Of a stretch of 64,000 nt of DNA, positions 1 to 63,350 are shown in pieces. The notes beneath the pieces are model-generated. The model searched no databases. It saw only the letters and a list, made by a program, of their open reading frames with translations, and was not told the DNA's origin. The position numbers were made by a program, and so were the translations under genes. Numbering within the stretch: the first letter of the stretch is position 1; the number at the start of each line of letters is the position of its first letter. Origin of the DNA: Leucoraja ocellata (Eukaryota); assembly GCA_036785375.1 (NCBI GenBank), contig JAWMAR010000252.1, forward strand, positions 62,001 through 126,000, written 5' to 3'.

Positions 1-600
1 TTAAACATTTACATAAGCAAGATGGGATTTCAATTCCGAAAATCGATCAAGTGCAACCTTAAACATAAACCATTTGCATTAAGTCTCTCGCAAACAGTAG
101 CTATTGCAACCACAAAATTCCCCAGCGTCTTCAAATAAGCATTTTGGATGTAAAGTGCTCAAAATGTAGTTCATAGGGAACAATGAACTGCAACAAGAAA
201 CATAAAACTTAGAAAGTAGAAGATTAATAGACCCCCCCCCCTGCTCAGCCAAAGGGGGGGGATCTATTAATGGGTGGAGAGGAGAGAATGAAAGTCAGGT
301 GGACATTAAAAATGGCAGGTTTGGAGGGGTTCCTCAAATAAAATTGGTGCACATCAGCTGGTCTGTAAAAGGTTTGGTGCAGTCAACCAAGCAGAGAGCT
401 GTTCACTAATGCCTCTCCTTGAACCACACATCAGCACAAATGTGGGAGAAATGGTGAAGCCCTGCACAGTGCAGGATTTACCTGCTGAAAAGTAAAGAAA
501 CTCATAGAAACACCACCCCACTGCTAAATCAAAATGTTGACATACCAATTGAAAAATAATCAACTTAAATTCATATCCGTAAAGTAGTGAAATCCATTTA

Positions 601-3077: not shown

Positions 3078-3262
3078 GGTTACACAAAAAAGCTGGAGAA
3101 ACTCAGCGGGTGCAGCAGCATCTATGGAGCGAAGGAAATAGGCAAAGTTTCGGGCCGAAACGTTGCCTATTTCCTTCGCTCCATAGATGCTGCTGCACCC
3201 GCTGAGTTTCTCCAGCTTTTTTGTGTAACCTTCGATTATCCAGCATCTGCAGTTCCTTCTTA
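3078..3262. mobile_element. Palindromic Penelope-like terminal-repeat insert
   Basis: About 150-bp near-perfect inverted repeat centred on TTTCGGGCCGAAA; flanked by AACATAATTGGCCAT at 3063-3077 and 3263-3277. Confidence 0.8.
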
Positions 3263-4093: not shown

Positions 4094-4688
4094 CAAATAG
4101 GACAGAATCTTATTTAACTATTAAATAATACTTATCACATTAGTGATCACTAGTTTTATCTTAATCGATGAAACTATAAAAAGTGTAGTGAAAATAATTA
4201 CGTGGTCCTGTGTACTACTTAGCATGCCCAACTCTGCCTCTGATTTCTTTGAGGACAACAACTTTTCTTCAGAGTAAATATCCACAATGAGGTACATGAT
4301 TAGAATTTTAATAAGTGACAGAGGAACTCAGTGGTACAGACAGCATGTGTAGAGACTGAATAGTCTGAAGAAGAGTCCCGATCCAAAACATCACTTGTTC
4401 GTTCCCTTCACAGAAGCTGCCTGACCAACTGAGTTCCTCCAACACTTTGTTTATTGTTCAATATTCTAGCGCCTGCAGTCTCGTAATGTATGTAATTTTG
4501 GCATCAAATCTGACTAAAACACATGTTTGGTGCTAAGGGTTTGGACTTGAATGTACATTTGTTTTACTAAGAGCACTTTGGTAGTAATATCCAGGCAGAT
4601 AGATACCAGAAAGATCAACCAAACTGAAAGACACTATAATGCATCATTGTAGCTGTAAAACATTTCACTTTAGGAGATGAATGCTTTA

Positions 4689-7199: not shown

Positions 7200-9420
7200 T
7201 CCTGATCATTGTTGCACAAGGTTCATGTACCTGATGGAGCAGCTAACTACATGCTCCATGTTCTTACCAGGAGCAGCCATCCTCAGCGGAAACATGGGAG
7301 ACGAGCTGGAGTACAGGTGAGATTGAAACAATGTGGTTTCAAGTGCTCCCTCTCCAGCATTCTGCTGGTAAATGTACAGGCTACCTCGAACAAACTGGTT
7401 GGACTTAAAGCTAGACTTGTGTAAGAAGGAACTGCAGATGCTGGTTTAAACCAAAGATAGACACAAAAAACAGGAGTAACTCAGCGGGACAGGCAGCATC
7501 TCTGGAGAGATGGAATGGGTAATGTTTCAGGTCGAGACTGAAGAAGGGTCTCAACCTGAAATGTCACCCATTTCTTCTCTCCAGAGATGCTGCCTGTCCC
7601 ACCCGCTGAGTTACTCCAGCTTTTGTGTTTAAAGCTAGACTTATCCACCTTAGAGGGACTGCTGTATGCTCTGTGCTCACTCTTCCTCACCCAACAGTGC
7701 CATTCAATCAGAGGGCTTCTCGCTACACCAGATGGACTGCAGAGCATCTTCGGGTAAGGTTAGGGTACTTTATAATTAACTCCACATGATGCTCAGACGT
7801 GTTGGTCCCGACGAGCTCCTGCTTCCCAGAATTGGAATATGGTAGTGGTGTTGTTTTCCCTACCACCTGCCATGGAAATGCCCTTGGGCTGTCCTGACAA
7901 CAGTCCACATTCCACTCCAGGATGATGCTAAGCTTGCACTTGAGGTACTACACACCATCGCCAATAGCCTTGAAATCAAGTGCCCTGAGGCCCCGGTCAT
8001 AATAACCAGGGACTCAAATCAGGCCAACCTCGGGTATGTCCTGCCAAAATAATATCAGCACGTCTCCTGCTCAATCAGAGATCTAAACATCCTCATCCAC
8101 CGTTACACAACCATCAGGAACACATGCTGCTGCAATCCCACTTTGGTAAATGTGATCACTGGCCTGCGCTTTTACTCCCTGTTTACAAACAGTAACTGAA
8201 GCGGGAGAATCCGGTTCAGAAAGTCGTACAGTTTTGGTCCGAGGAAACAGATGAGATACTTTGTGACTGCCACGAGTCGGAGGACTGATCCTTATTCAAG
8301 GACTCAGCAGCTGAGCAGGATGAATGAACCTGCTGTCACAGACGTCATCAACAAGTGTGTAAAGGACCGTGTACCAAAGACGACAATACATGTTTCCCAA
8401 CTGGAAACGATGAATGAACCAAGTTACACTCCCAGGTGAAGTCGAAGTCTGCAGCATTCAAGTCAAACAATCCCGAGCAGTACAAGAAATCCATAATGAC
8501 CTTAACACACCTATTAAGGATGCAGAGGGGAAATTGTGGGCCAAAGCAATGATCTGGACACCCACAGATTGTGACAGGGTAACGGCGAGCATCATTGGCG
8601 ACAACTGATTGCTCCCAATGAACTCAATGCAGCTACTCTCGCTTTCAACAGAAGGCTGGTGGGGGAGGACGTCACCCACCCTGCCAGTTTCGGGTGCACC
8701 CGTACCAACAGTTACCCATGGCAGATGCGAGGTTGGCCTTGCCGAGTTAATCCGTGGGCCCGGCTGGAGTCCCTGACCCTGGCCTCATGACTTGGTGTGG
8801 ATCAACTGGCAGAGGTATTCACAGACATCTTTAACCTCTCACTGCTCCATTCAGAGGTGCCAACCTGCTTCAAGAAGACCACTATCATTCCAGTAGCAAA
8901 GAAAAGTGAGGTAGCATGTCTGAATGACTACCATACAATGGCTTTGATATCCACCATTATTTACCCTCAAAGTGATGGTGCACATTAACCCCAGCCTCCC
9001 AGCCTGCCTTGATCAACCCGCAGTTTACTTACAGTCACAAAGTGTCCGCAGCAGACATCATCTTCCTGGTTCTAAATGACCCCAGTCATTTCTCCTTCTC
9101 CCTGCTCCCATCTGGCAGACAATACAGAAGCTTAAAGCATTCACCCCCAGAGTGAGGAACAGCTTCTTCCATTTTGTTATCAGCTTTTGAATGATTCTTT
9201 CATAAGCCAGAGTACTGTCAAATTCATCTCTACGCCATTATGGACAATGGACATTGTCTGCGGAACTGATGGACCACAATGCTAAGAACATTCTACCTAT
9301 TGTGCTTGAGTTTGACTTAAATGTATTTATGTTTGGATTACCAGATTTATTTTTGGATAGTAAGTGAAACAAAGCTTTTCACTGTACTTCGTGCCCATGA
9401 CATGAACTGAACCTAAATCG
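7200..9420 (+). mobile_element. Decayed Rex1/Babar-type LINE (APE and RT fragments, internal deletion)
   Basis: SILLVNVQATSNKL (APE start); [32 protein letters not shown] (RT); LLPSGRQYRSL (C-terminus); multiple stops and frameshifts. Confidence 0.8.
7419..7628. mobile_element. Palindromic Penelope-like terminal-repeat insert nested in the Rex1 LINE
   Basis: Inverted arms around CTGAAGAAGGGTCTCAACCTGAAA; TTAAAGCTAGACTT duplicated at 7405-7418 and 7629-7642. Confidence 0.8.
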
Positions 9421-18404: not shown

Positions 18405-18588
18405 TTAAGAAAGAACTGCAGATGCTGGAATAATCGAAGGAAGACAAAATGCTGGAGAACTTCCGCGGGTGAGGCAGCATCTATGGAGAGAAGGAATTGG
18501 CGATGTTTTGGACCCGAAACGTCGCCAATTCCTTCTCTCCATAGATGCTGCCTCACCCGCGGAGTTTCGCCAGCATTTTTCGTCTACC
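18405..18588. mobile_element. Palindromic Penelope-like terminal-repeat insert
   Basis: Inverted arms centred near 18510; AGAGGTAYGGATGT at 18391-18404 and 18589-18602. Confidence 0.8.
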
Positions 18589-20810: not shown

Positions 20811-21110
20811 GTCCTGGAAAGCATAAAATACACCATATAGGGCAGAAGGGTCAATTTCAAATGGATAGAAGGGTCAATTTCATTACTGTCCAACTCAAAC
20901 TCTAAAATAGAAACTACACTTCATTGATTATGGGGCTTTGGGAAATTTTGAAATGGATGCAAAAGTCTATATTAATATCATTCCTGTTTTCTCTTTCTTT
21001 TCAGGTACGGCCAATGTTTCATTCAATGACAACCCGTACTGTGTCACCTGCAGTTTTCTTCATGCATACATAGAATGGTGAGAACGTTGGCATGAACTGA
21101 GCCTACTTAC

Positions 21111-21480: not shown

Positions 21481-24013
21481 CTTAAAGTAAAACAAAATTG
21501 AACAAGCACATTCATTTCATGAAAAATAAAACACAATCTTTTGATGCACTTTCCATATGGCAAAACTGAAGGGATTGGTCCAAACATCTGATGTACAAGA
21601 ACAAATTTTTTTGTCCACACCGTCTCCTCCTGGCTCGAACATCTTTTACTGTTTGGCACCCACATTGTGGCAACAGATCTCAAATCTTATAATATAAATA
21701 GCTCAGAGGTCCTTGCATAACTGGGAGTCAAGATGACAATTGTTTTCTAGGCAAATTCATTTTATTTGAAAGCCTTGGAAGAGCAAGACTCCATACTCAG
21801 TGGAAGGCCCCAGTACTGGCAAACTGGCAGCGCCAGTAACACAAGAACAATACGAGAGGAAGCCCAGCTTTCACAGAAGGTACATCAATGCTAATCATAT
21901 GATTGGAAGGCAAGTGGCACCAGGGATTAAAGTCAAACAACAAAGCAAAATTAAATTACAGAATTTTCCTTTCCCTTTCTTGAAAAAATCATTTACAGAT
22001 TTAGTTTAGTCATGTCCCACCCAACCACCCAAAGCTTTGATGTTCTAAAAGCAATGTGTATTATTGGCAGCATTATATCCACATATTGACTTCATTAGGG
22101 TGATGTTTCTTCATTCAATGCCGTGACATTTTGCATCCCTTCTTTCAGTCCTGGCTGGATCAACTTCTGAGATGCACTCAGTCACAAGATTAAATGTATT
22201 TTCTTGTATCTTTCTGGAAAATATTGAGATTAGAGTTATCTTATCTCCCATTTTCACAAGATACCCTTTGCATATTTCAACAACCACGCCAACATTCCAA
22301 CATTCTTTTTCCAAGAGTCAGATTTCCTTGAGTGCTTCTCCGAACAGCAGCTATCATGCAGTTTGATTTTTTTTCTGTTCACAATACTGAATGGCCATTT
22401 CCACTCATGCAGTCTTCGCCAGCAATCCTTACAGGCAGGCCACTCATCTACTCTCTGCCAGTAAGCAAATCCATTTTCTCCCAATATATCTACCATCTTC
22501 GCCAACTCCATTGCTGTTGTGCATTCTCTGCTTTTTGCAATGCATCTGAAGTTGAAAATTATTTCAACACTTCTGCATTTCGATTATGTAATCACATTGA
22601 GGTAAAAGACTGGGGCCATCATTGCATAATTGTCAGATTTAGAACCACAAATCACTAATAAAATGTTTGTGATGTCTGAACAAAATAAAAGGTTTATCCA
22701 ATAGAAATGTATAAATTGTTTCTCTACAGAGGCAATGCTCTACTCTAAATTCAAGATTGCAATCCAATGGCAAAGATCTACACTTTTTCTGAAGAAGTCT
22801 TGACCCAAAACATCACCCACTCCTTCTCTCCAGAGATGCTGCCTGTCCCACTGAGTTACTCCAGCTTTTTGCATCTATCTTCAATACTATAAACTAACTG
22901 GTCCATTGTAGATTGAAAGATCTTTAGTGATTAGCTCACATCTGTAAGGCATTTAGTAAAAACTCAAACAAGCATCATCTCACAAAATACAATGTCCTAA
23001 TTATTTGTGATGGAAAGGTTCATGGATTCTCGTGGATAACAAATAGAAATGTGAGTAACCATCAAGGCATTTGGCAAGGACATACAAAAAACAAGTGTCA
23101 TGGATGCAACAAGCTTCAATTTCAGCTTGTGTCCAAAGTCTCCAATGATTCCGGTCCTAGCCACCCACCTGACGCACTCTGGGCTCTAACCCTGGCCCCT
23201 ACAATATGCATGACCTGACCCCCTTCAACCCAAATCACCCCCAGCCCCCACATGTTCCCAAACTCAATAAGTGAATCCACATGTGGTAAACGAGCAGATG
23301 AGAATTGTGTGCATTGCAGAGTTCTTATCCACTTTCAACTGCACATAAGCACATGCCTGATATAGTCCATCTCCTTTTAACTCTGCACACATCACAGGAT
23401 CAACACGCATTGGATGCACTTCCCCAGCAGCCTGGTACAAGATCATCTTGCAATCAGACATCTCCAACAGTTTTGTTCACTTTAGACACAACCAATGCTC
23501 AATCACTTGGGTTCAATCTTCACCAGAACATAACTTTATTTTAATTTATCCAACTCTTCCTTCACCTGGCTGTTGATGCACATGGACCAGGTAAAGGTTT
23601 GTAATGTGTAGGAAGGAACTGTAGATGCTGGTTTACACTAAAGATACACATAAAACATTGGAGTAACTCAGTGGGACAGGCAGCATCTCTGTTTCTGAAG
23701 TCTGAAGAAGGGTCTTGACCCAAAACGTCACCCATCCCTTCTTTCCAGAAAGGCTTATAATGTTTGCTTTTGCATCCGATTTGATGCGTTTGATATGAAC
23801 AGGTACTGAGAATTTTAATACTCAGGTACTATGGAACCTTTCTGTATACTTTCCTAATAGTATGCCAAAGTACAAGTTTGAAACATTCATGCTAAGTGCA
23901 GTATAGCTTCAATTTCCATCGAGATTGTTTATATTAAGACTAATATTAGGTAAACAATCACAACCATTGGTAGTTCTCTTTGCCCACTGTGACTCACTAA
24001 ACTTCTGGTCTAA

Positions 24014-25570: not shown

Positions 25571-28392
25571 TTTGAGACTCAAAATGTCATGAAAAATTCT
25601 CATATTTTTTATTCTGAATTCCTTAGACCATACTGTGAGAATTGAGTGCTTCAACATTTATGCAACAAGGCTCAGCAATCTGCAAAAACTTGGACTTTGT
25701 AAACAGCAAACAAATTGCATTCACTAGTAAACTATAAATGCCGGCATCAAAATGCTTCAAATCTTGTTTTCCTAATAAAAACCAACTAGTGCTAATTATA
25801 AGTACACTGGCATCCATTAACAATGATTAAAACAGACAGACTCACCATTAAAACAGAAGAATCTTCAGACAGCAATCCAGAAAGTTAAGAGTATAAATTT
25901 CAATTGACTACTTCATTTTACTGAAATCAGATTTTTAAAAAATGAAATACAGCCTTTGTCTTATTTATCCATCATGGAATTTCAATTGGATTACACAGCT
26001 CAACTCTGAATGTTCATATTTCTTCCCTTCGAACCATTGAATTTTGCACAATAACAGTTACTGCCTTAATACGGATACATCTACCAATAATTCTACCACT
26101 ATGAACAAGAATATATTATTTCTCCTCCTGGACTTTCCCTGTGGGTCAGAGATGACTTGTATCCATTCAGTTCCTTTGTCTACCCGCCTCTAGCCACGAC
26201 AACCCCCCACAAAAATCCTCAGCCAAACTGCAAATATTTACACCAATTCAATAATTTGCTTGAATTTCCTACAAGGCTATTATTTGAAATAAATGCATCA
26301 TTATTTTTGAAACTTGCTATGAAATATTCCATAAACGCTTGAAAAAAAGAACACTTTCTGGGCAGTGCATGAGGTTTTGCAAGATGAAGGGTTGAAAGAA
26401 AAAGCAAAAGAACCAAATGTGTAGGAAGGAACTGCAGATGCTGGTTCAAACCAAAGATGGACACAAAATGCTGGAGTAACTCAGTGGGACAGGCAGCATC
26501 TCTGGATAGAAGGAATGGGTGACGTTTTGGGTCGAGCAACATAATCAAGTTATGTTTCCCCGAATTATGAATTACTGCTGACCAGTTCAATCACATGCAA
26601 GATAGTTGTATAAAGAAAGTAGTATGGCTGTTTGGAAAAAGTCCTCAAATCTAATTAAAAAAGTTGTTTGATGTGAATCAGTCAGTTGATCTAGAAATGA
26701 GCCGCAGTGGATGCAACTAAAACAGGAAATTACTGACCTCAAAAGACAGATGTTTTAACAATGGAAAGCAATCCGATAAACAAAGGAAGAAATACAGTCT
26801 GGAAGTTCACACAGTTAACCAAATTTACACAGATCATTATCATCATGTTGTGACATTGTGTTTGATAGAACAGACCCTCGGAGTTCAACAGATCAAAGGT
26901 AGCTGCAGGATATCACATCTGACTGTGACAGGCCATCAATTTAACAAACTTTATGAAAGCTCCTACACACAGAGCCTTTTTAAGTGCTCATGCTATGATA
27001 TGAAGTGGAACCTGATATTACATAGTACATTAACTACCAGTTATCAAACTTGCTCACTCCTTGAGAATGAGTTGCAATCAATGATGCTTTAGCAAAACTG
27101 ATTGGTGCTCCAAAGTAGGCAATACATATAATGTCAAAATATTAAAGAGGTGATAAAAATTATAAATATAGTTTAATTATAAAATATTAAGCAACATTAT
27201 TTCCAAAATATAGCCAACATTAATTATACATTGAAAGTTTTTTTGCTAGTTAAACATTCATTGACAGAGTTAAACTACTGTTGCTTATTAACTTCTACAA
27301 CAGATACTGACGATAGTTTACTTTCAAAATTGTGACATGTTTGAGTGCAAACTTCAAGGTAGTTTGAAAGCCAGATATTCAATGTTTGGCCATAGAATAA
27401 TTTTTCATCGGTAACGGCATTCAGAGATATATTACAATATATGGATGGTTTGAGAAAGTAAATACGTTTTGTTTACCCAAAGACTTTAACTTGTAAACCT
27501 CAGTGACCCAAATAAATAAATAACCCAGTCAAGAAATTGCTTATTACTAATTCTTCAGCAACATCGTCATGCATCTCCTCTTTCAGTGATCCTTCCAGTG
27601 ATGTGATCAAACCATGCACCCGGAACTATACATATGGTTTAAATTTTACACTTTCAGCATTATCTGCTTACTCTCATATTCCATGCCAGAATCTATATAT
27701 GCATGTGTCTCATTATAAATTTTAAGTTTATCTGTCAATCTACACCGGTTTTGCTATCTTCAGGAGTCTATGAACCTGCACTTTAAGAGTTCTGGTCCTC
27801 TACATATTCAGCACCCTCGTATTTTATAATGCATTCCCTGCTCAAAAGTCACAAGATTCAACAAGTTTGAGACCAAATACTGCAGCCATTAGTTGCACAT
27901 GATGATCGCATGATTCTGCAGTGTAACACAGTCCAGCTGTGTTTCTGTCATGGATAAAAGACATCTCCACCTTAAAAGTACAGTTTGCCCATTAATCCAC
28001 TTTACAAGAGCAATTTTCACTTTTGTCAATGATTACATGAATTTAACAACCCATGAACCATCACCTTTCTCTTTAACAGTTATTGTTCAATTCCATTTCT
28101 AGATTTAGAAGTTGCTATAGTTCTTCTGAGGCAGTCTCTTGGGATTAAGGACAATTTATTACCACTCTGATTCTGTAGCTTCCGAGTTGGCTATCGAGAC
28201 CAATGTGGCTACTGCAGATACTTCCAGAGATGAAGCAGGTGAGTGGGTGGTTTGAGAGTTGCTGCCAACATAGGCAGGGCTTGTGTGTGTGTTTGACACA
28301 TGGACTCGGGGTTCTAAATATTATGCTCTCCACTTTGTGTGGCCATTTCTAAGATCAGTGTGGATACTTCATTTTTCAAATAGCCAAATACA

Positions 28393-34008: not shown

Positions 34009-34396
34009 CTAAAAAAATTTCATGTAAAAAATTTCTTACAAGTACCTCAATTACATCAAGCTCCACTTTTTAGAATATGGAAAAACAACTTAACGATGAA
34101 ATTTAACCCATATTTTAGCACCATCACAAAACCCAAAACAGCTCAATAGGTTTTCTTTTAAAAAGAACTGCAGATGCTGGAAAAATCCAAAGTAGACAAA
34201 AAATGCTGGAGAAATTCAGCGGGTGAGACAGCATCTATGGAGAAAAGGAGTAGGTGACGTTTTGGGTCGAGACCATTCTTCAGATCAATAGGGTTTTCTT
34301 TGTGATGCTCAAATTACCAATATATACTGAACCAACTGTAGTTGTAATCTTGTGAGACAATTGATAACCGCCAACATTCCGTACACAGCTACTTAC

Positions 34397-34493: not shown

Positions 34494-35001
34494 CTGGGGA
34501 AAATATACTATATTCAATTCATATTCATTATTTTTAATTATTGGAAGACAAGATGATCAAAATGTAAACTCTGCAAACAACCCCTTGATTTTGTCTAGCA
34601 CTTAAGATGAACAAAATACACTTCCAATGGTGTGCACATTCCTGGGACCAAATCTTGCTGAGAAAACAAGACCTTTAGCTTACATATTCACAAAATAAGG
34701 GGTCAGCCATTTAATAATGAAAAGAAGAATTTCTTCTGACTGGCTTCCAAATCTTTGGAATTCTCTAATTGAGGGAGCTATTGAGGCAGAAGCATTAAAT
34801 AGACTTAATGAAATACAATTTTCACACTTAACAGGAAATCGGCCTCTTGATTAAGTGAGGAGACATAAATTATCTATTTGTAACAGAGATGGGTATACAA
34901 GGGATCTAAAATAGGTATTTAAACAGGGTGTGAGCCAAGAGAAACCGTTACAATTAACAGAGGGGTCAAGAACAATGGGGCATAGAATGGAAGTAACATC
35001 G

Positions 35002-35440
35002 ATAGGACCAAGCGTAGGCTTAGCGATCGCCCAACACCTCCGCTCAGTTCGCAATAACCAATCTGATCGCCCAATGGCTCAGCACTTCAACACCCCCTCC
35101 CATTCCAAATACGACCTTTTTGTCCTGGGCCTCCTCCATGGCCAGAGTGAGTCCAACTGCAAATTGGAGGAGCAGCACCTCATATTTTGCTTGGGTAGTT
35201 TACACCCCAACGTTATGAACATTGACCTCCAATTTCAGGTAGTCCTTGCTTTCTCCCTCTTTCCCCTCCCCTTCCCAGCTCTCCCACAGCCCATGGTCTC
35301 CGCCTCTTCCTTTCTTCTTCCCACTCCCCCCACCCCCACATCAGTCTGAAGAAGGGTCTCGACCCGAAACATCACCTGTTCCTTCGCTCCATAGATGCTG
35401 CCTCACCCGCTGAGTTACTCTGTATTGTGTCTACCTTCAA
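35002..35440 (+). mobile_element. Penelope-like element 3' fragment (GIY-YIG C-terminus plus terminal repeat)
   Basis: AQHLRSVRNNQSDRPMAQHFNTPSH...KLEEQHLIFCLGSLHPNVMNID, then CTGAAGAAGGGTCTCGACCCGAAAC at 35346; ATAGGACCAA at both ends. Confidence 0.85.
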
Positions 35441-37148: not shown

Positions 37149-39377
37149 AATATTCCAGTAGAGCATAAATAATACCCATCATTCAATAATCACCAATAAC
37201 AAAGTGACATTATTCAACTGAAGAGTCCTTTGTGCAACGACCATACTTCAAAAGTAGTTAACACAATGTGAAATTCTATCTTGTAAACTGATATTATTTG
37301 GGGAAAAGAACAAAAACCCATAATGGAGTGAAATCATTAATTATTCTGTGGAGAAAGTCAGGGTTAATACAGAGCTATAAAGCCCACGGATAAAAAAAAA
37401 TACAAAATACTGATCCACCTTAAAATCCAAAACAAATTACGACTTATTTGTTATGCAGGCTAAATAAATTGACACATAAAAAACATTTGCTTGAGTGGTT
37501 TTATCTCATTCTAATGTTACAACCACCTTCCGCTCTACTCCCTGGTTTATATCCTGGGGGTTTTAGTTGGTGCACTGTGTCCCCTTTGCCCTTTCTCCAC
37601 AATGGTTACAGAGCTGTATGAACATAGCCACTCTGCTATGAATTACAGATTGCAATTCTGTGAAGATCATTCAGATTCTTACCATTAAAGGAAAGAGAAT
37701 GGATACACAAATAAAAATTAATTTAATCTGAAAAATGACTAAATCTCAATTGCTGCTGGTGAACAGTAACTCCAGCTTTCATTTTAATTACTTTGTTCTT
37801 TAATCAAAGGAAGCCCAGGAATCCCTCAATTGCCCTTGATTAGTTAAACAAAAACAAATCAATTGCTGCAGAACGATCAATCAGCAGGAGGGCCACTGGC
37901 CAGGAATGCTTTCAAATATTTTACCATTGTACTGAGGTTTTAAAATCATTCGTGTTTATTGTCAACCAAGTTAACATTTGCCAAGGAATGTGCAACCACA
38001 GGGAACAAACATATTGATCTGGTGATAAAAATCAAAGGAATGCTGTAAATCTGACCCAAGGGGGTGAAAAGTTATCCTCATTCCATTGGGAAATTCAGAT
38101 GAATTTAACAGGGATAATTAAAAACTCCATTATAAAGAAAAGATGAAAATAAAACTACAAGTACATATTTGGAGCATCTCCATGTCTACAGTTTTTGTTT
38201 AATTAATGAGGGTGGGCTTATTACTTGTCAATTTTAACAGCATGAACTACTAAATGTTAACTATCAGGAGAGCCGATTCCCCCCATCCCATTTATTCTAA
38301 CACCTGCTGTGTTGAAGATTATCCAGAACAAAGGACAGGATATCAAAAACACACGACTGGGTGTTACCTTACATTTCACTCAAAAGAAAAAGACTAGAAT
38401 TTAAAAGGAGTTTCTCTCAATCTCTGAATGCTTCATATGCATTGTAGGCAAGGAAAGGCAGCAGGCTGCAAGCAGCAAGCAAACCAACACTGCAGTGTAA
38501 TCATCAAATGGAAATTCGATTTGAAGTGATGTTTAACTGAAAGAATTCACACATTCCTTAAAGGAGAAGTTTGGGATATTTTATCTTCATCTCAGAGGGT
38601 AAATGGGAAAACCTCTATTTACCATCTTAAATGAAAGACAAGACATCTCACAATGCTGCATTCTCAACACAGCACTTTTTTTTGTGCTTGTGCCTCAGGA
38701 CGGGAGTATGTGAACACCTTCAAAAGATCGATATAGCTGTGAAGCATAACCAACATCTAAAAGAGAAGTATTATTGGAAACCTTATTTAGTTCCGAGCCA
38801 ATCACAACCTGAACTCAAGTGATGAAATAATCAATTATTTTCAGATTGTTTTTCCTTTAATACTAAGATTGCCAAATTGTCACTGACTTCTGCTTTTTTT
38901 TGCCAATGCAGCAAACCTCTAATCTTATCCAAAATTAGAGCATGCATGTACATTTAAAACAACCATGCTGATGTTAATCTGCCACATATGCTCCAGGTGC
39001 TGTTAAATCTTTCACAAAGTGTAAACAGACCAAAGCGAGCACAAATGAAACCACGCATTATACCAACAGGTGACACAACATAAAGGGTTGAATAATGCCT
39101 AAATGGATGAGAAGGCATACAAAAGATCAGAACTGCCACAAACAGATATTGTGAGCCAAAATAAATACAGAAGGATGTTGCAAATACCGATAAACTATTA
39201 ACCTGAACTAACTTTTTTCCTATCAGAGATGCTGTGGAGACTAGCATTTCCAGCATTTCCTATTTTTGAACATATTGGAGCCTTTAAAAGTAGTGTAAAT
39301 ATACAAGAGATAAAATGCAAAATCTATTCCATAATTATCAATTTTGTGTAGTTTACAAAATGTTTTGTGTATCTTAC

Positions 39378-39602
39378 TTATGCAGTTCTGTTGCACTGCA
39401 TTCCCATAATAGCCAGGCTTGCAGAGGTTGCAGTGTTCACCCTCGGTATGATACAGACATTTTAGACACTCTCCAGTTCGCTTGTCACAGGACTGGGGGT
39501 CAGTCACATCGATGTTGTTGTTGCATTGACACCCCTGACAATACCCTCTGGTCTCATTAGGGTTACCATAAAACCCAGATGCACATTCATCACATCTAGC
39601 AC
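39378..39602 (-). CDS. LAMB1: LAMB1 exon ~22 (LE), 225 nt
   Basis: gacag|GARCDECASGFYGNP...CLKCLYHTEGEHC...QQNCI|gtaaga. Confidence 0.95.
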
Positions 39603-39784
39603 CTGTCAAGGTAAAAGCAGTAAATTGTAAAAACAAGGGAAAAACACGCCTTGTAGTTACATGGAAACAGACAGCTGATGTTAATCCTCAACAGTACAAT
39701 TTGTAATTTAGCATATTCTGTTCCCATCTTTTGCTACCATTCCATGAAGTTTGATGTGATACTTGCCACAATCATTATTAACCC

Positions 39785-40687: not shown

Positions 40688-41760
40688 GACATCCAAGATG
40701 TCCTAATTCTTTAGGGAACGGGGGTTTCCCTCTCCCATCATAGATGAGGCCCCATAGATGTGTCTCCTCGGTACCCCAGAGCTCTGCCATTGCTCCCACT
40801 CCTAGTCGCAACAGAGACAGAGTCCCACTAGTCCTTAACTTTCAACCCATCAGCCGTCGCATACAGCACATAATCCTCTGAAATTTCCGCCACCTCCAAT
40901 GGGATCCCACCAGTAGATACATTTTCCCATCTCCACCCCTTTCCACCTTCCACGGAAACCTTTCCCTCCCCAACTCCCTGGTTAACTCATCCCTTCCCAC
41001 CCAAATCACCCCTTCCCCAGGTACCTTCCCCTGCAACTGCAGAAAATGCAACACCTGTCCCGATGCCTCCTCCCTCGTCTCTATCCAGGGACCCAACAGT
41101 CCATTCAGGTTAGGCAGAGGTTCTAGTATCACTTGCACCTCCTCCAACCACATCTACTGTATCCATTGTTCCAGATGTGGACTCTTATCCATTGGTGAGA
41201 CCAAACATAGACTGAACGATTGTTTTGTTGAACACCTTTGCTCAGTCTGCCTGAATCTACCGGATCTCCTGGTTGCTAAACACTTTAATTCTCCTTCCCA
41301 TTCCCACACAGACCTTTCTGTCCCAGGTCTCCTCCATTGTACGAGTGAGGCTAAACACAAATTGGAGGAACAACATCTCATATTTTGCGTGGGCAGTTTA
41401 CAGCCCTGTGGTATGAATATTGATTTCTCTAACTTCAGGTAGCCCCGGAATTCCCTCTCTCTCTATCCCTCCCTCACCCAAGTTCCACTAGCTTCTTGTT
41501 TTCACCTAACAAACATCTACCAATGGCCTGTTTCCATCACCATCGTTACGTTTTTGCATATCTTTCATTCATTGTTCTTTATCTCTCTACATCGTCGCCT
41601 ATATCTCTCATTTCTCTTATCCCAAACCAGTCTGAAGAAGGGTCTCAACCCAAAACGTCACCCATTCCTTCTTGCCAGAGATGCTGCATGTCCCACTGAG
41701 TTACTCCAGCTTTTTGTGTCAATCTTCAGTTTAAAGCAGCATCTGCAGTTCCTTCCTACC
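40688..41760 (+). mobile_element. Penelope-like element: linker, GIY-YIG endonuclease remnant and terminal repeat
   Basis: RVPLVL.F.PI.RRIQHII; PGTFPCNCRKCNTCP; IYCIHCSRCGLLSIGETK; KHFNSPSHSH; KLEEQHLIF..GSLQPCGMNIDF; stops and frameshifts present. Confidence 0.88.
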
Positions 41761-41870: not shown

Positions 41871-43125
41871 AAACATAGAATCATAGAAAATAGGTGGAGG
41901 AGGCCATTCGGCCCTTCGAGCCAGCGCCACCATTCATTGTGATCATGGCTGATCATCTACAATCAGTAACCTGTGCCTGCATTCACCCCATACCCCTTGA
42001 TTCCGCTAGCCCCGAGAGCTCTATCAAACTTTTTTTAATTCATCCAGTGAGTTGGCCACTCCTGCCTTCTGTGGCACAGAATTCCACAAATTCACAACTC
42101 TCTGGGTGAATAAAGTTTTTTCTCATCTCAGTTTTAAATGGCCTCCCCTTTATTCTTAGACTGTGGGCCCTGGTTCTGAACTCCCCCAACATTGGGAACA
42201 TTTTTCCTGCATCTAGCTTGTCCAGTCCTTTTATACATTTCTATAAGAATCCCTCTCATCCTCCTAAACCCCAGTGAATACAAGCCCAGTCTTTCCAATC
42301 TTTCCTCATCTGACAGTCCCACAATCCCGGGGATTAACCTCGTGAAACTACGCCGCACTCCCTCAATAGCAAGGATGTCCTTCCTCAAATTAGGAGACCA
42401 AAACTGCACATAATACTCCAGATGTGATCTCACCAGGGCCCTGTACAACTGCAGAAGGACCTCTTTACTCCTATAGTCAAATCCTCTCATTATGAAGGCC
42501 AACATGCCATTAACTTTCAAGAAGGAACTGCAGATACTGGAAGATCGAAGGTACACAAAATTGCTGGAGAAACTCAGCGGGTGCAGCAGCATCTATGGAG
42601 CAAAGGAAATAGGCGACATTTCGGGCCAAAACCCTTCTTCAGACTACTCATTGGCAAATGCCATTAGCTTTCTTCACTGCCTGCTGTACCTGCATGTTTA
42701 CTTTCAATGACTGGTGCACAAGGACACCAAGATCTCAGTGCACTTCCCTTTTTCCTAATCTGATACCATTGAGATGATAATCTGACTCCTTGTTCTTCCG
42801 CCAAAGTGGATAACCTCACATTTATCTACATTATTCTGCATCTGTCCACCCAGTCAACCTGTCCAAGTCACCCTGCAACCTCCTAGCATCCTCTTCGCAG
42901 TTCACACTGCCATTCAGCTATATGTCATCTGCAAATTTGCTAGTTACTCCCTCTCCTTAGACTCTCTGTCCTCTAGTACATTTGGGAGATTGTTTGTGTC
43001 TTCCTTAGTGAAGACAGAACCAAAGTACCTGTTCAACATTTCCTTGTTCCCCATAATAAGTTCACCTGTTTCTGCCTTCAAGGGACCCACATTTGTCTTT
43101 CCTAATCTTTTTCTCTTAACATACC
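41871..43125 (-). mobile_element. CR1 LINE (internally deleted) with a nested Penelope-like repeat at 42519-42657
   Basis: EVLLQLYRALVRSHLEYYVQFWSP...LERLGLYSLGFRRMRG; KTNVGPLKAETGELIMGNKEM; nested insert flanked by ATGCCATTARCTTTC (42504-42518, 42658-42672). Confidence 0.85.
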
Positions 43126-43510
43126 TCTCCCACCCATGTCGCACTAGCTTCTCATTTTCACCCTACAAACAGCTCACAATGGCCTGTTTCCTTTACCATC
43201 ATTACATTTTTGCATTTCTTTCATTCATTGCTCTTTATCTCTCCACATCACCATTTACATCTCTTGTTTGCCATATCCCTAACCAGTCTGAAGAAGGGTC
43301 TCGACTCTAAACGTCATCCATTCCTTCTCTCCAGAGATGCTGCCCGTCCCGCTGAGTTACTCCAGCTTTTTGTGGCTATCAATGTTTTAAAAAAACTTGG
43401 AGGGATATTGAAATATTAAGATCCAATGGGTTAGACTTAATACAACATCCGTATTAGAATGGATGACCAACATAAACTAACAATCACCTTTAAAAAAATT
43501 AAAAACATAC

Positions 43511-44999: not shown

Positions 45000-45124
45000 A
45001 ATGAAGAAGGGGTTCGACCCAAAACGTTGCCCATTTCCTTCGCTCCATAGATGCTGCCTCACCCGCTGAGTTTCTCCAGCATTTTTGTCTACCTTCGATT
45101 TTCCAGCATCTGCAGTTCCTTCTT
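45000..45124 (+). mobile_element. Solo Penelope-like terminal repeat
   Basis: AAGCATATTGGAAG duplicated at 44986-44999 and 45125-45138. Confidence 0.8.
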
Positions 45125-51108: not shown

Positions 51109-51833
51109 TGGGCCTGTCCCACAGGCGATTTTTCAGGCGACTGTTAAGTTGCCGGCAGTCGCCTGAAAAACCGGCGACTGGAACGGCGACTGTCAGAGTG
51201 GAACACACACACATCGCTTCCTTCACCAGCCCGTTATGCAGGCGAGGGACAGTGCAAGCAGGGGGAGCGCTGTCTTAGTGAAATTCACATGGTGCAAAGC
51301 CAATGTGATACAGACACACACAGCGATGAACAGGAAGGTTGGCGCTGTAATTAAGACGGTGATAGCAAAGTGTACGGAAAGGGTCACGTAAATCCTTTAA
51401 AAGAGGGGGGGGGGGGGGGGGGGGAGAAAGAGTGGACACAACTTTTAAAAAGCCAGAGATACACGGCTGTGAAGCTCGGCAGACATTAACATTACAGGTC
51501 GGTTATCCTTGGTTCTGAAAACTACTGCTTACGTTTTTGTTCCCCCCAATGAGCCAGCACCTTCGACTCCTGGTGACCCACTAGGATCTCCTGGCGACCC
51601 ACCTACGGCACGAGAATTCTCGCTATTCTCCATGGCGGCTTCATCCTGATCGCCGCTAATTTTTCAACATGTTGAAAAATCTGCGGCAACCATAATGAGG
51701 CCGCGACTAGTTCCCAGAATGCGGGAACTCCTCACGACCATGAAGGTGGCTACCCAGCAACCACCCGCGAACATGTGGCGACTGCATAGTCTCCTGCAGT
51801 CACCTAAAATGTCACCTAAGTGGGACAGGCCCA
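51109..51833. mobile_element. PIF/Harbinger-type non-autonomous transposon
   Basis: Perfect 13-bp TIR TGGGCCTGTCCCA / TGGGACAGGCCCA; TAA duplication; internal GGCGAC repeats. Confidence 0.88.
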
Positions 51834-52947: not shown

Positions 52948-53347
52948 CTGCAAAACAATAACCCCCAAATGTAAACCATGTGAATGGCATATCTTTGTTG
53001 AACAGCTTAAATCTTCTGGCAAAAACAAATGGTAAAAGCGAAAGTTAACATGATGTGGAAAGTTTTTAAATATCATGGCATTATGAGCTACATTTCAGGG
53101 GAATGGATATACAGTTTGATGCCCATGCTCTCATTTAAGAATGGGTGCATCCTGAAAATATACAGCATAAAAAGGGGGGAAACCCCCAAATCTGTTTTCT
53201 AAACATTTTACAATATTAAACCAAGCTGAAAACTTTTGAGTCCACCTTTTAAATTTTCAGCAGCAATTCTGAGGGGTTTTGAAATTTAACATATTTTCGT
53301 GTTTTGTTTACAGTGGTTTTCCACTGCTGCTTTAACAATTCACTTAC

Positions 53348-53460
53348 CAGACACTGATCACAGTTCCTGCCCACCACCAGACGTTTACAGAAGCAGCTTC
53401 CTGTTACATCATCACATGGAGATCCTCCTGGATGAGTTCCCAAATGGTTACAGGCGCAGG
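53348..53460 (-). CDS. LAMB1: LAMB1 exon ~12 (LE), 113 nt
   Basis: tttag|[37 protein letters not shown]|gtaagt. Confidence 0.94.
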
Positions 53461-53935
53461 CTAAATGACCAAACAAAGCAATAAGCTCACTTTTCAAACA
53501 AATATCAGCAATTACAATTAGGTGTAAACTGATTACTGAGGCAGAGGCAAAAATTCCACCTCCCAGCTGGATTCATCTCATACATGACAGAGGAAAGAAA
53601 ACATCTTGGACACAACGAACATCCATTCCTTACCTTTTTCAACTTCTGGACAGTTTCTATTCACATGCAAACAAAGCTGAGGCTCAAATAAACATGCCAT
53701 TTATCACTCTGTCTAGTTGTAGGCCTCTGATTGTGATGTACACTCCATCACACTAGTGTCCAACACTAGCAGTCCAACACTAAAGTGACAAGAGGTCTTT
53801 CCAGAAGTAAACTCACGTTAAGGGAGATTCTTTACACCCTCCATTTCTCCTGACTGTCATCCCAACCCACCTGCCCTCCGTTGCCCCTCCTCACCCATCA
53901 CCACCACCACCTCTGGCCACCCACTTTGCTGCACC

Positions 53936-54040
53936 CACCCCTGATCAGTCTGAAGAAGGGTTTCGGCCCGAAACGTTGCCTATTTCCTTCGCTCCATAGA
54001 TGCTGCTGCACCCGCTGAGTTTCTCCAGCTTTTCTGTGTA
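53936..54040 (+). mobile_element. Solo Penelope-like terminal repeat with intact hammerhead-like core
   Basis: CTGAAGAAGGGTTTCGGCCCGAAACGTT at 53950-53977; ACCCACTTTGCTGCACC duplicated at 53919-53935 and 54041-54057. Confidence 0.8.
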
Positions 54041-54985
54041 ACCCACTTTGCTGCACCACCTGCCAGTTGGATTGACACAGAAGGGCCAAACATGTGAGCA
54101 GTTACAGAACTTTTGCCAAATGATTAAGCTCACCACTGATACTCAAATCAAGCTCATGCAGTTCAAATATTTGCAAATAATAGTCTTGGCCAGCAACAGC
54201 AGACACATCAACCTAATTTTAAAGAAACTTATTTTACAAATTAAAAAAAAAAAAAATGTCACAGAATCATTCTCCATTATAATTTATTCTGTTTTGCTCT
54301 TTTTAACTGCATTCACAATTCTATGTTTTACCAAGCAGCCATCACACCAAATTAAAGCAATGTACCAAGGAAAGGAAACCAGTATCTGAAAAATGTGAGG
54401 ACGTTCCGAATCAGTGGATCTGGAAGAAGTTATTAATACAATACAGAAAAGATGATAGTTTACTTCATGTGTAATAAAAAAATATTAATTTTGCAGTTCT
54501 TTTCGATGTGGAATAATTACATATTGGACACAAATTCAGATTTATTTCCTTCAAATGAACTAAAATGTATAATTTTGGGCATATCAATGACTTAGAGATG
54601 CTAAGTGGAGCTAATATTTCCTCCCACAAGATTCAGCATTGTAGAATTGCAGCTCCTAAAAACCTTTTTTTATGACAGTTACAAGATTTACAACAGAACT
54701 CTCACTTTTACTCACATCTGCACAAAAGGAACATCCCTCTGTAGCAGTCCAGTGCCTACTGAAACCAAATTTGAAATATGCCAGTAGAAAAGTTTAATTA
54801 GACCTGATTATGCCAATTTTTGAAAAAATTGTAGAATTGTAGATTTTCAAATGAGTACAATCCTGCACTGAACATTACCATGTTTAACTATAGTCTTCTG
54901 AAATTCTGGAATCAAAAGGTACGATGCAAAATTAAAATATGAAAAATGAACTTTGCATAATTTTCAAGAACAAGCAAATACTTAC

Positions 54986-55165
54986 GTTGGCAACCTAGTG
55001 GATCATTTTCACTTAGTCCAAAGAAACCCTCTTTGCACAGATCGCAGCGCTCACCCTCAACATTCATCTTACAACGGCATTGCCCCGCTATGAGATTAGC
55101 TGTCAAATCGGTGTGACTATCACAAATCCCACCATTCAATGATCCAGCAGGGTCACAGTTACAAG
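54986..55165 (-). CDS. LAMB1: LAMB1 exon ~11 (LE), 180 nt
   Basis: tgcag|[20 protein letters not shown]...DPLGCQ|gtaagt. Confidence 0.94.
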
Positions 55166-55568
55166 CTGCAATAAAAAGATTAGAGCAATATTACGCATGC
55201 ATTGTAACAAATTGTGTTGGATTTTTCATCTAAATTTAGCTCCAACTTTTTTTAAGCCATTTTCACAAAATGTAATACACCAGTTTTGCAGTTCAAATTG
55301 TGAAATAACAAACCCTTTAGGCTTACAGTTAAGAAATCAGAACATATGCCACATATTAAAACTTCATCTTCAAAAATTAAATATGTAGTTTAACATTTCT
55401 GAATAACTTTTAAAACACTGGATAATCAGTGTGCATAAAAAAGGTATCCGGATACCTTGAGGCAAACATTCTCTTTAAAACTCTTGACGCAACCCACCAA
55501 CAAAAATAATTCAAGTGGATCAGTGTCATTTACTTCTTGGTCATGGTGTATCAAATGGCAGTACTTAC

Positions 55569-55757
55569 GCTCACAGATGTCAGTGGCACGAATACCTCGT
55601 TCTGGATGCTGGTAGTAGAAAGGTTTGCATTGTTCACAGTGCTGCCCCATTGTATTATTCTGACAGCCATCACACACACCACCACTGACATTACCCGTGG
55701 CTAAATACACAGCCATGTCAAAGTGACATTTATGAGCATGTCCATTGCAGTTACACC
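55569..55757 (-). CDS. LAMB1: LAMB1 exon ~10 (LE), 189 nt
   Basis: ttcag|[32 protein letters not shown]...DICE|gtaagt. Confidence 0.94.
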
Positions 55758-55787
55758 CTGAAATTTAAAGCAGAGAAAGCCTAATTT

Positions 55788-57267: not shown

Positions 57268-57707
57268 CTGGAAAACAATGCGTCAAAATCATTTCATTGC
57301 CCGAAGGACTACATCTGCAAGTTCTCTACACCCAAGGAAACTGGTCAATATTGGTCTGTTTAGCCTTGATTTCAACATTCATTATCATTTAGTATTTTTC
57401 CAAATTAAATAGGCACAAGAATAATTGGAGTGGTGACAGACTTGAATTTTCTAGCAACTATCCAAGATTGTAAGTACTAAACTACTTACTCCAATTACAC
57501 CAAAAATCAAAATTTCTGAATTCCTGCGCATGCACTTAGGCTTCATTCTTCCTGGTACAAAATCACTTTCTCAATTAACACAAAATACAAACAGAAACGG
57601 ATAAGAATGTGTATATAATCAATAATGAAGTTGATTCGCAGGAGATCTTACAGATGAGGTTGCAATTTTGACATTTTTATCCCTGCACCAATTACTAGAG
57701 TGTATAA

Positions 57708-57873
57708 AAATGCTGGAGAAACTCAGCGGGTGCAGCAGCATCTATGGAGCGAAGGGTTTCGGCCTGAAACATTGCCTATTTCCTTCGCTCCATAAATGCT
57801 GCTGCACCCGCTGAGTTTCTCCAGCATTTTTGTGTACCTTCGATTTTCCAGCATCTGCAGTTCCTTCTTAAAC
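57708..57873. mobile_element. Palindromic Penelope-like terminal-repeat insert
   Basis: Inverted arms; ACTAGAGTGTATAA duplicated at 57694-57707 and 57874-57887. Confidence 0.8.
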
Positions 57874-58805
57874 ACTAGAGTGTATAACATCAGTTCTGAC
57901 AAAGGGTCTCCAACCTGCAACATTAACACAATTTCTCCTTCCACAGATGCTGCTTTATCTAGAAATGTTCTCTTTTTATTGAATACAATTTGTTTTCTAC
58001 TGTAACGAAAGGGTAAGTGCTAAACAAAAAAATGATGAGGGGTGGACAGGAAGGAAAGTACAATTTCTCAAATTGAAGATTTAAGATTAAGCTTTCACAA
58101 GTATTCCTCCAATTTCTCCAGTGTTGCCTTTCATTTTGAAATGATTCTCAAAAGAATTAAGATAGACGCAACTATTAAAGTAATACATCAGCATAGGATC
58201 ACAAGAATCCCACTTTCAGTTAAACCAAATGAATTATTGACCACAGGCATAAAACAGCTGGGAATCTGGAATCAGAGGCACCAAGAGGGAAACAAGGAAT
58301 TATTGCCTCAGTCATTCTTTCGTGCATCTTTCAGATAGTTCAGCACAACACAACACAATTGCCATTCTTATCTGACAGCTGAGGTGCAACCCAGCAAACA
58401 GAAAAGGTAGAATTTAAAAAGTGTTAAGAAAATAACTGCTTGAGAATCAAGTATTTTCAGACTGCAGTCTGACCACTGCAACAGGAAGCTGAAAGTCTAC
58501 AACAGTCGCTTGGAATTTGTGAAGTCAAGTTTTGTTTTAAGACCTAAAACAGGAAATGGCAAAGCCAGGTCAGGGAAAGTTTTGTCTGGGTTCAATTAAG
58601 CTCCAAAGCAAACTTCATTGTGAGTCAGCCACATTTCAACTCACGACTGGAGAGAAAACAAACTTTGTGACCACATAGTTTGTAGCCAGATTAAGTCCAA
58701 TACTGCAGAAGTACTTTTTGCTTTCATGTTTAACATGGGACAAAGGCAATGAAAGACATTGAACATTACTCGAGGCAAAACATTTTTTTTTAATATACCA
58801 CTTAC

Positions 58806-59011
58806 CTTCCCTTCTACATTCTGATTGTTAGATTCATCAACGGGAGCACACTCACTAGCATGTCCATAGCAGAAACAATTGCCCCGAACCACCATGTCGT
58901 AGATGGCATAGTAATATTTTTCTTTGATTTCTACTCTCGAGTCCAGTAAATTGTCACCCAGAGTATGGAGTTTAGTAAACCTTATCCTCAGGTTTGTGAT
59001 CTTCAGCATAT
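58806..59011 (-). CDS. LAMB1: LAMB1 exon ~8 (LN end / LE1), 206 nt
   Basis: tgaag|[26 protein letters not shown]...[12 protein letters not shown]...VEGK|gtaagt. Confidence 0.94.
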
Positions 59012-60125
59012 CTTCAAAACAAAATACACAAGTGAATTAGAATTTGTTAGTCATTCAGAAAATTAGGATGTTTTCCCTCAAATGTAAAGTTTCCATTAAT
59101 ATTAATTGTCAATTCCACTAAAGTAGTAAAAACATTCAGCTTCATTTTTTTGCAACTAAAATGTTTCCCAAGAGTTGAGAGATGTTAATAAAAATAGCTG
59201 CTCATAGAATTAAATGACTATTACAAATGGAGGATTTTTTTTTGCAAAGATACTCCTATTAAAGTTGCAACATTTCTTGAAATAAGATTCAAGCAAAATA
59301 CTTCACTGTCCTTAGAATAAATTGAGAATACAAAATTACCAAAGTTTAGCTCTACATCCATTTTACAAATAATCAACATTCCTAGATGTGTTTCATCTGC
59401 AAGAGTTCATTTTTCCTGAAAGAGGAACTTTAATGTAGCTCCACTGCAACGACACGAGCCAACAGAAATAAACTGAAGAGATGCAGATAAAGAAAATGGG
59501 GAAACTGGTGCCATAATTAAAAAAATAACTCCTTGGAGGCAGATGAGGATCTTTTATGCCAGTTTCCTAATGACCCCAAGTGTTACTGTCCCTTGATCTC
59601 TTGTTCATTGGAAATTGTCAGAGTAAATTTAAATGCAAATCTGGATGGTACCTTTGCCCATTGTTTTTAAAACGTATAACAACCTCAAATGTTATTAATA
59701 TCAGTTAATAGAAAGATGTTTTAGTGGCAAAGGAAAATTCTGCCCCTCTCCCTCTTCCTTATTCCCCATTTTCTTTCAACCAAACAGAATGTGACTGTTA
59801 TTTCATCAGGAACGTAACATTAACAGGCAAAATTGAACAAAGGCTGGAAGTTAAGATCTATTTAAAAATGTCTACATTTTCCAATTCTCTGCCAAAAAAT
59901 ACATCCTGAAAAAGGAACACTCTACACTTATTAACAGCAAACAAGTTTTTGTCAACAGGAAGTATGCAGGCCACATGGGAAACTAGGTCTATCTCAAATC
60001 CATTTGAGTAATTGCTACAGTGTCAATACAAGAAAGAATCAGAAAAACAATGACAACGTATTAAGTGTTCCAGGCTAGTACTGGCAGCAAATAGCCCAAA
60101 TTATAAGCCCAAATATAACAATTAC

Positions 60126-60972: not shown

Positions 60973-61163
60973 AGGGCCTGTCCCACTTGGGCGTCATTTG
61001 CGCGTCACGCAGATGGCGCGCAAAGATTTTGTACATACCAAAATCCTGGGGCGTCGCGCGCAATCGCGCGTCACTGCCTACGTCACCACGCATGTGTGCG
61101 GCACAACGCGCGCGTCGTGACACGTAAATTACGCGCAAATGACACTCAAGTGGGACAGGCCTT
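60973..61163. mobile_element. PIF/Harbinger-type MITE, CpG-rich
   Basis: TIR AGGGCCTGTCCCACTTG extended by GTCATTTGCGCGT / ACGCGCAAATGAC; TAT on both sides. Confidence 0.85.
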
Positions 61164-62520: not shown

Positions 62521-62745
62521 TAAACATAGAAACATAGAAAATAGGTGCAGGAGTAGGCCATTCGGCCCTTCGAGCCTGCACCGCCATTCAATATGATCAT
62601 GGCTGATCATCCAACTCAGTATCCTGTACCTGCCTTCTCTCCATACCCCCTGATCCCTTTAGCCACAAGGGCCACATCTAACTCCCTCTTAAATATAGCC
62701 AATGAACTGGCCTCAACTACCTTCTGTGGCAGAGAATTCCACAGA
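62521..62745 (-). mobile_element. CR1 LINE 3' end
   Basis: LWNSLPQKVVEASSLAIFKRELD; (TTTCTATG)n tail on the minus strand. Confidence 0.85.
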
Positions 62746-63054
62746 TAAGGGATTATTACCAAGTAATAGGGTATCATTGCACAACTTGTAGAAACAAAGA
62801 ACTGCCGAAGCTGATTAATACACAAAAGGACCATCTGGGAATAAACCATGAACAGAACTGTATATAAATCAGTATTCTGGTTATCATGTCTTAGAAGCCC
62901 ATGAGGTATCATTTAAATCAACAAGTCATTACATTGATAGGCTTAAGTTAATGTAACCCTGTTGAGCTTTTGAGATCACTTTGAAGTGAAAGCTTGTTAG
63001 TCTATCAGATTTTAAATATCTATACAAAAAGCACCCTGCTGGAGGCACTTAGCA

Positions 63055-63350
63055 AATCAGGCAACATCTCTGGAGGGTAGACACAAAATGCTGGAGTAAC
63101 TCAGCAGGACAGGCAGCATCTCTGGAGAGAAGGAATGGGTGACGTTTCGGGTTGAGACCCTTCTTAACAACTCTGGTGGGAATGGGCAGCCTTCATTTTG
63201 AGTTGTGCCTCTTCTTCCATTCCAGTCTGAAGAAGGAACCTGACCCAAAACGTCATCCAACCATTTCTCTCCACAAATGCTGCCTGACCTGTCGCGTTCT
63301 TCCAGCATTGTGTCTCTGGCTCAAGGTTCCAGCATCTGCTGTCTCCCATC
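63055..63350. mobile_element. Cluster of Penelope-like terminal-repeat copies in opposite orientations
   Basis: GGCAGCATCTCTGGAGAGAAGG...GACGTTTCGGG and CTGAAGAAGGAACCTGACCCAAAACGTC. Confidence 0.65.

Follow-up and report, generated by a model that had tools for sequence, protein, structure and literature searches.

The window analysed here, a stretch of 64,000 nucleotides of the Leucoraja ocellata genome, carries at position 53950 a short sequence that a preliminary description had read as a hammerhead-like motif dispersed with the terminal repeat (pLTR) of a Penelope-like element (PLE), which raises the questions whether it is a hammerhead, whether it cuts and what its copies record of the element's RNA. 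Judged by its letters and by the element to which it is attached, the motif is very probably a type I hammerhead of the minimal kind, located in the pLTR of a PLE with an RT and, at the C-terminus, a GIY-YIG domain, a putative weak ribozyme of which the stub at 53950 is likely to be an inert copy. Cutting would occur only as a dimer or with the element's protein.

The motif at 53950 and its copies in the window

Checked against the window letters, CTGAAGAAGGGTTTCGGCCCGAAACGTT begins at 53950 (+) and CTGAAGAAGGGTCTCGACCCGAAACATC at 35346 (+), both exactly as first reported. The 53950 motif and its surroundings comprise:

53947..53979 (+): minimal type I hammerhead motif, by core pattern and the consensus in the PMC4209133 supplement
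53948-49 (+): GT, 5' strand of helix I
53950-56 (+): core CUGAAGA, followed by an extra A at 53957
53958-61 with 53966-69 (+): helix II, loop TTCG at 53962-65
53970-73 (+): GAAA
53974-75 (+): CG of helix III, within the palindrome A-C-G-U at 53973-76
53976 and 53977 (+): U16.1 and U17, predicted cut 53977/53978
53978-79 (+): GC, 3' strand of helix I
53936..54040 (+): solo 5'-truncated pLTR insertion of 105 nt, young subfamily A, without ORF
53919..53935: target-site duplication of 17 nt, left side, with the same letters as 54041-54057
54041..54057: right side of this duplication
53252..55190 (-): host laminin EGF-type exon frames at 53252-53572 and 54915-55190, from translations
58644-59036, 55429-55764, 39244-39687 and 21110-21481 (-): further examples of laminin gene exons

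The insert terminates at the first of the two 3' end sites of the family. Since it lies between two laminin exons, it is intronic and antisense to the laminin gene, a beta-type gene with Laminin_N and EGF_laminin domains that occupies the minus strand of the region 247-59036. Helix II had been drawn as five base pairs with a 2-nt loop; a 2-nt loop cannot close a hairpin and the helix therefore has 4 bp and a 4-nt loop (TTCG or CTCG), the fifth pair being able to form only between two molecules in cofolding. Helices I and II can pair, though not as the best fold. The palindromic helix III holds at 53950 but is broken at 35346, which reads GAAAC-ATC and sets C15.2 opposite A. Other copies in the window are:

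34999..35426 (+): 5'-truncated element with broken GIY-YIG C-terminal DNA (34999-35241), 3' UTR and the hammerhead at 35346
40882..41719 (+): 5'-truncated element with a linker and GIY-YIG fragment (40882-41439, 186 codons), 3' UTR and a pLTR (41629-41719) that has lost G12
42550..42645 (-): solo pLTR starting at -3, full core, all pairs kept via wobbles
3078..3230: fold-back (inverted) pLTR pair, turn inside TTTCGG-C-CCGAAA, without CUGAAGA
7463..7631: inverted pLTR pair, plus arm with core at 7538, without helix I
18444..18582: fold-back pLTR pair, without CUGAAGA
57702..57838: fold-back pLTR pair, without CUGAAGA
63082..63312: inverted pair of decayed pLTRs, arms at 63165 (-) and 63227 (+)
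23651..23758: inverted pair, plus arm at 23702 with G12 lost
4362..4451 (+): decayed pLTR, old subfamily
22788..22871 (+): decayed pLTR
34197..34284 (-): decayed pLTR
43285..43374 (+): decayed pLTR after a 3' UTR remnant
45002..45093 (+): pLTR truncated at the core's first bases

All ten other places named in the preliminary description hold copies (eight on the plus and two on the minus strand), but its list omits about a dozen, among them the fold-back pairs at 3078-3230, 18446-18579 and 57706-57831, and the minus-strand copy near 42642, labelled there as decayed, keeps by descriptor the core and all pairs. Every descriptor feature passes in two of the 13 window copies that bear C3, namely 53947 (+) and 42645 (-), the latter on the same strand as the laminin gene; the remaining 11 fail at least one feature.

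LINE-like 3' coding fragments, which we take to be CR1-like, lie at 42137-42549, 25364-25657 and 62619-62912 (all on the minus strand), and the 42645 (-) pLTR sits within one of them. Other terminal inverted repeats (598-919, 60975-61161 and 51635-51704, with arms of 28, 31 and 38 nt) are probably remnants of small DNA transposons unrelated to the Penelope-like family.

The autonomous element and the size of the family

The endonuclease fragment at 40882-41439 was used as a lead to long frames in sampled stretches (L-numbered). The frame at L041:4318-6762 encodes 815 amino acids with ADKGG, YIDD, the linker CNCKKCNTC and the series CIRCSRC...YIGET...EH...QHF, i.e. a single RT and C-terminal GIY-YIG frame with DKG and CCHH motifs. 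Pfam matched RVT_1 in L042 (E 4e-8) and GIY-YIG at E 4e-4 to 2e-3, weaker than Pfam's cut-off; the two endonuclease fragments of the window gave no Pfam match, nor did the 815-aa frame find one in a PDB sequence search. The hammerhead motif lies about 115-130 nt 3' of the stop of the RT/GIY-YIG frames, and a full unit in L131 has the motif at both ends (6525 and 2489, 4,036 nt apart) and a frame broken by shifts. This link to an element, together with the fit to the published consensus, bears out the original reading of a minimal type I hammerhead with palindromic helix III and 2-bp helix I in a Penelope-like pLTR. Short proline/alanine-rich repeats (GPDLP-like) precede the RT in the N-terminal coding region at L131:5900-5000 (-).

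The traits of EN+ PLEs are present, namely pLTRs, an inverted 5'-truncated neighbour and a one-sided tail. Between RT and EN, the L041 element has the CX2-5CxxC linker, a Neptune trait common to Nematis; given this CxxCxxC linker the element would not be of Penelope/Poseidon type, and the linker points to Neptune or Nematis, an assignment by motif rather than by placement in an RT tree. Neptune-type EN+ elements, as described by Craig et al. 2021 (PMC8557442), share the RT followed by a C-terminal GIY-YIG, the DKG motif, the Zn-finger-like linker and the pLTRs, as well as the adjacent inverted 5'-truncated copy, the one-sided tail and heavy 5' truncation, while the sharp crowd of 5' ends at the hammerhead edge (see below) is not described in the portions of that paper covered.

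The loose core pattern is only modestly enriched in the window, with 15 matches where shuffles give 5.7 on average and 13 at most. With a profile derived from 30 genome matches, 25 copies are detected in the window and 500 in a 1.144-Mb sample (the window plus 108 stretches of 10 kb at fixed coordinates), and none in the reversed control. In the 3.44-Gb genome the 31-nt pattern has 59,610 exact matches (control 0), all to one pattern, as compared with about 4,000-9,000 copies in coelacanth and frog by the descriptor of PMC4209133; core and all pairs are intact in 36 of the 246 sampled copies that bear C3. A second family, with U at N7 and a supposedly longer helix I, was considered and rejected: its matches number only 1,146, have the helix II of the main family and are read as point mutants. 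One copy, at L054:7159 (+), contains three head-to-tail 30-nt repeats of the segment from helix II to the cut site.

Junctions were analysed in 328 copies, the 500 matches minus those scoring under 35, near a stretch end or outside the alignment. The 3' ends form two groups separated by about 35 nt, at +86..101 in 157 and at +120..135 in 107 copies, and this is the optional tail of PLEs; PAc of Anolis carolinensis, of the Poseidon clade (Frangieh et al. 2024, PMC11167929), likewise has two 3' end sites and an optional tail of 30-40 nt. Of 246 copies examined for tandem arrays, only one has a direct copy in the 120 nt upstream of it. Non-LTR retrozymes, as portrayed in bioRxiv 10.64898/2026.07.22.740005, have the same type I hammerhead, are PLE-related and non-coding, but form tandem arrays, whereas the skate copies are dispersed solo or inverted stubs colinear with the end of an autonomous element.

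Minimal hammerheads are already described as a class in PMC4209133, with dispersed copies numbering in the thousands in the genomes of fish, coelacanth and frog. The metazoan PLE hammerheads, including those of fish Xena, Poseidon and Neptune elements (Cervera and de la Pena 2014, PMC4209133), agree with the skate motif in (i) the CUGANGA, the extra base, G10.1-C11.1 and GAAA; (ii) an absent or tiny loop 3, the palindromic 15.2-16.2, the UH and the occurrence in both pLTRs; and (iii) mostly dispersed single copies from truncated elements and some inverted pairs. Compared with most of them the skate motif has a shorter helix II (4 bp, tetraloop), a shorter helix I (2 bp) and little sequence variety. 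Cartilaginous fish do not appear in the PMC4209133 text and the parts of its supplement 2 that were covered, and a literature search found no paper on the motif in cartilaginous fishes, a result that does not prove absence. The motif is ordinary apart from its intact predicted cut sites and front-edge starts; the 53950-type motif is no new system but brings to a known class another host lineage and a very large number of copies.

Where the copies begin

The 5' end lies within 6 nt of C3 in 184 of the 328 copies and at the cut site (±1) in a single one. The score filter disfavours very short copies, but the genome-wide pattern counts are independent of it: across the cut site, 64,656 matches from the cut site become 63,040 with a two-base extension (2.5% lost), which caps cut-site starts at about 3% before allowing for decay. 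At the front edge, there are 34,671 matches from G5, 27,069 from -2 and 18,901 from -4, that is, 30% are lost over the two bases from -2 to -4. Copies starting at the cut site (+28), expected if cut RNA were inserted, are ruled out by the junction counts; few copies start there, and cut RNA is therefore not what is inserted. The insertion of uncut copies agrees with PAc, where, according to PMC11167929, uncut RNA is the insertion substrate, the hammerhead likewise lies at the pLTR and no reads ending at the cut site are described.

Upstream DNA of edge-truncated copies is unrelated from copy to copy, hence the front edge is not a missing subfamily UTR. Target duplications of at least 12 nt occur in 20 of 109 truncated copies (4 of 400 in the control); they were discarded as exact 5' markers, being too few and too scattered to fix the start.

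The crowd of 5' ends would most likely reflect an RNA start at or near -3, placed there from DNA junctions. Young solo copies start most often precisely at -3 (10 of 77), which is the A in the word TCAGT; the full-length unit in L131 begins at -2; and for each 5-nt step the probability that a copy ends is 0.44 at -5..-1, compared with values mostly below 0.1 upstream of -30. A plausible alternative, which we consider somewhat short of probable, is that the crowd marks a stop of reverse transcription or a junction hotspot, at which the palindromes TCAG-T-CTGA and TTTCGG-C-CCGAAA or a bound protein end the cDNA or fold it back. Such a hotspot would account for the spread of the ends from -6 to +6 rather than at one base, for the inverted arm upstream of 120 of the 328 copies, with turns at -5 and +10..+22, and for the 72 copies that run further upstream of the front edge; it accommodates less readily the exact mode, the full-length unit and the steep rise of ending at the edge. 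Alongside a start at -3, stopping or fold-back at the two small palindromes explains part of the 5'-end spread.

In three 2026 RNA runs searched at 88% likeness, which come from coded organisms that may not be of the host's species and are dominated by passenger copies on both strands, coverage is thousands-fold on either strand for the repeat end and averages less than about 35 for the ORF region; no pile-up of read ends, at the cut site or elsewhere, was seen in them, and these runs tell little about the host species itself. At the first 3' end site of the element (L131:6430), loose ends on the antisense strand occur in 669 single-cell reads of one run (X22). The majority sequence of these loose ends resembles what we take to be a template-switch adapter (agreement 0.45); they could come from strand invasion by the adapter at GG or from antisense RNA that starts where the element ends.

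Conservation, folding and a proposed mechanism

PMC4209133 gives the consensus of PLE minimal hammerheads as NNN CUGANGAH G..C GAAA N N U H NNN, in which an additional base precedes G10.1 and 15.2-16.2 is palindromic; the motif matches it letter for letter. The 53950 copy and the majorities of four subfamilies all have C3-U4-G5-A6-N7-G8-A9, G12-A13-A14-A15.1 and U16.1-H17, as well as the unpaired base between 9 and 10.1 and the G10.1-C11.1 pair. Core letters are identical among the four; the five variable places are two in loop 2, N17 (C/U) and two A/G opposite U, and all the subfamily changes inside the motif fall on places that a hammerhead tolerates. Across the majorities of six UTR-defined subfamilies (62 of the 71 ORF-linked copies, the other nine being in small clusters left out), mean identity is 0.937 for the motif, 0.888 for the downstream 54 nt, 0.835 for the endonuclease DNA and 0.667 for the upstream UTR; within the element end, it is the stretch from -3 to +30 that is best preserved across subfamilies. 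On the sequences compared, support for a hammerhead comes from this conservation rather than from covariation, although a function as promoter or protein-binding site could also account for it.

The two helix II variants had been taken as a sign of maintained pairing, but they are one-sided wobbles: none of the nine pairs changes on both sides (500 of 500 shuffles score equally high), and in 176 gap-free copies with a score of 40 or more none of the four helix II pairs rises above shuffles, again with one-sided wobbles only. G2.2-C1.2 alone does so in that set (4 against 0.8, p 0.003 uncorrected, one of 15 pairs tested). Divergence within this genome is too low for a strong covariation test. 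An Rfam scan of the window, the check originally suggested, gave 20 matches at E up to 10, none of them to a hammerhead family; its miRNA-like matches are fold-back pLTR pairs.

No folding signal was found (z-scores -0.18 to 1.22). In five copies the hammerhead monomer lies 0.9-3.3 kcal/mol above the best fold, with a helix I probability of 0.007-0.08, and in four of the five it is outcompeted by a hairpin (GGGU with RCCY, plus CG/CG; window 53958-53981, +) that can pair in all four subfamilies. Covariation for this hairpin, suggested by 20 rows (4 cells, equalled in 10 of 500 shuffles), vanished in 176 rows and is therefore not claimed. Of the 46 matches to the descriptor (control 0), 32 have a helix I of 2 bp.

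It is rather unlikely that the motif is a hammerhead by descent and no longer a ribozyme, the block being kept as an internal promoter, a start or a protein-binding site. The short helix I, the winning competing fold, the lack of covariation and of cut-site copies, and a downstream 54 nt nearly as conserved as the motif would all fit such a loss, as would the finding that hammerhead mutants had no effect on PAc insertion in vitro (PMC11167929) and that Naiad elements are described without a hammerhead motif (PMC8557442). Against it, the subfamily changes all respect the hammerhead, this architecture is found again in different animal phyla whose helix sequences are unrelated, a helix I of 2 bp being recorded for Drosophila, Culex and Oikopleura (PMC4209133), and the PAc motif does cut with protein (PMC11167929). 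A putative, weak ribozyme remains our reading.

An intron-bearing element like the Penelope of D. virilis, in which the pyrimidine tract and CAG before TCTGAAG would be a splice acceptor and the spliced RNA would have a longer helix I, is very unlikely. In every subfamily the core is indeed preceded, at a distance of one base, by a CAG that closes a pyrimidine-rich tract, and the D. virilis intron end maps to the 5' end of helix I (PMC4209133); however, only one of 111 edge-truncated copies has upstream DNA that matches the element elsewhere, the rest having no common upstream exon, and by eye no GT donor common to the subfamilies was seen. The single match, at L157:47 (-), was rejected as a spliced copy: its upstream 37 nt match the element's +170..+206 region, which is no exon, joined directly to the front edge in a short tandem- or circle-like junction. 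From the accounts in PMC4209133 and PMC2377424, D. virilis Penelope shares the 2-bp helix I and a promoter and start inside the pLTR, but its start lies upstream and its intron ends at helix I; no sign of an intron was found in the skate element.

That the dispersed copies are active ribozymes cutting host pre-mRNAs, for instance via dimers of neighbouring copies, is extremely unlikely: the intact cores and pairs of the 36 copies, the abundance of the repeat end in RNA reads of both strands (organisms possibly not the host's) and the 42645 (-) copy on the laminin strand would allow it, but core and flank decay at equal rates in young subfamily A (3 of 200 and 9 of 540 non-CpG sites), as expected of dead inserts, the 53950 copy is antisense to its host gene, minimal hammerheads assayed in vitro are reported without monomer activity and with low dimer activity (PMC4209133), and the RNA runs, with the same proviso as to organism, hold no pile-up of read ends.

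We propose that transcription of the master element proceeds from its upstream pLTR and probably begins at, or close to, the A of the initiator-like word TCAGT, which lies three bases ahead of the core. A start at -3 would leave only 2-3 bases for helix I and would therefore explain both the sharp 5' edge and the 2-bp helix. PLE transcription start sites are reported to lie in the pLTR (PMC6765202). Alone, the RNA would fold into the competing hairpin (GGGU with RCCY), making cutting rare and conditional; weak, conditional cutting is reported for other minimal hammerheads (PMC4209133), and PAc cleaves only with protein, its uncut RNA being inserted from two internal RT starts (PMC11167929). 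As in PAc, the element's protein would begin reverse transcription of uncut RNA at either of two internal sites, which lie 90-130 nt downstream; copies reaching the RNA start would become stubs of roughly 95-135 nt, fold-back at the two small palindromes would yield the inverted pairs, and the stubs would afterwards decay neutrally. In PAc the ORF starts in stem II (PMC11167929), whereas the first ATG of the skate element lies 49 nt after C3 in one frameshifted full-length copy.

The role of PLE hammerheads is described as still unclear (PMC8557442). We suggest, as a proposal that is unlikely rather than probable, that the hammerhead may form the first 33 nt of a capped RNA, in which the conserved competing hairpin would hold off the putative ribozyme, a cut triggered by dimer or protein would remove the capped leader as a self-limiting switch, and only uncut RNA would be copied into the genome. 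If this were true, the 5' end of a PLE RNA would be recorded, to the base, in tens of thousands of stubs, and the question of the hammerhead's role would become directly testable. Young copies, in their tens of thousands, show that insertion does not use cut RNA, and the skate copies thereby extend the in vitro picture of PAc to a second clade and to genome scale.
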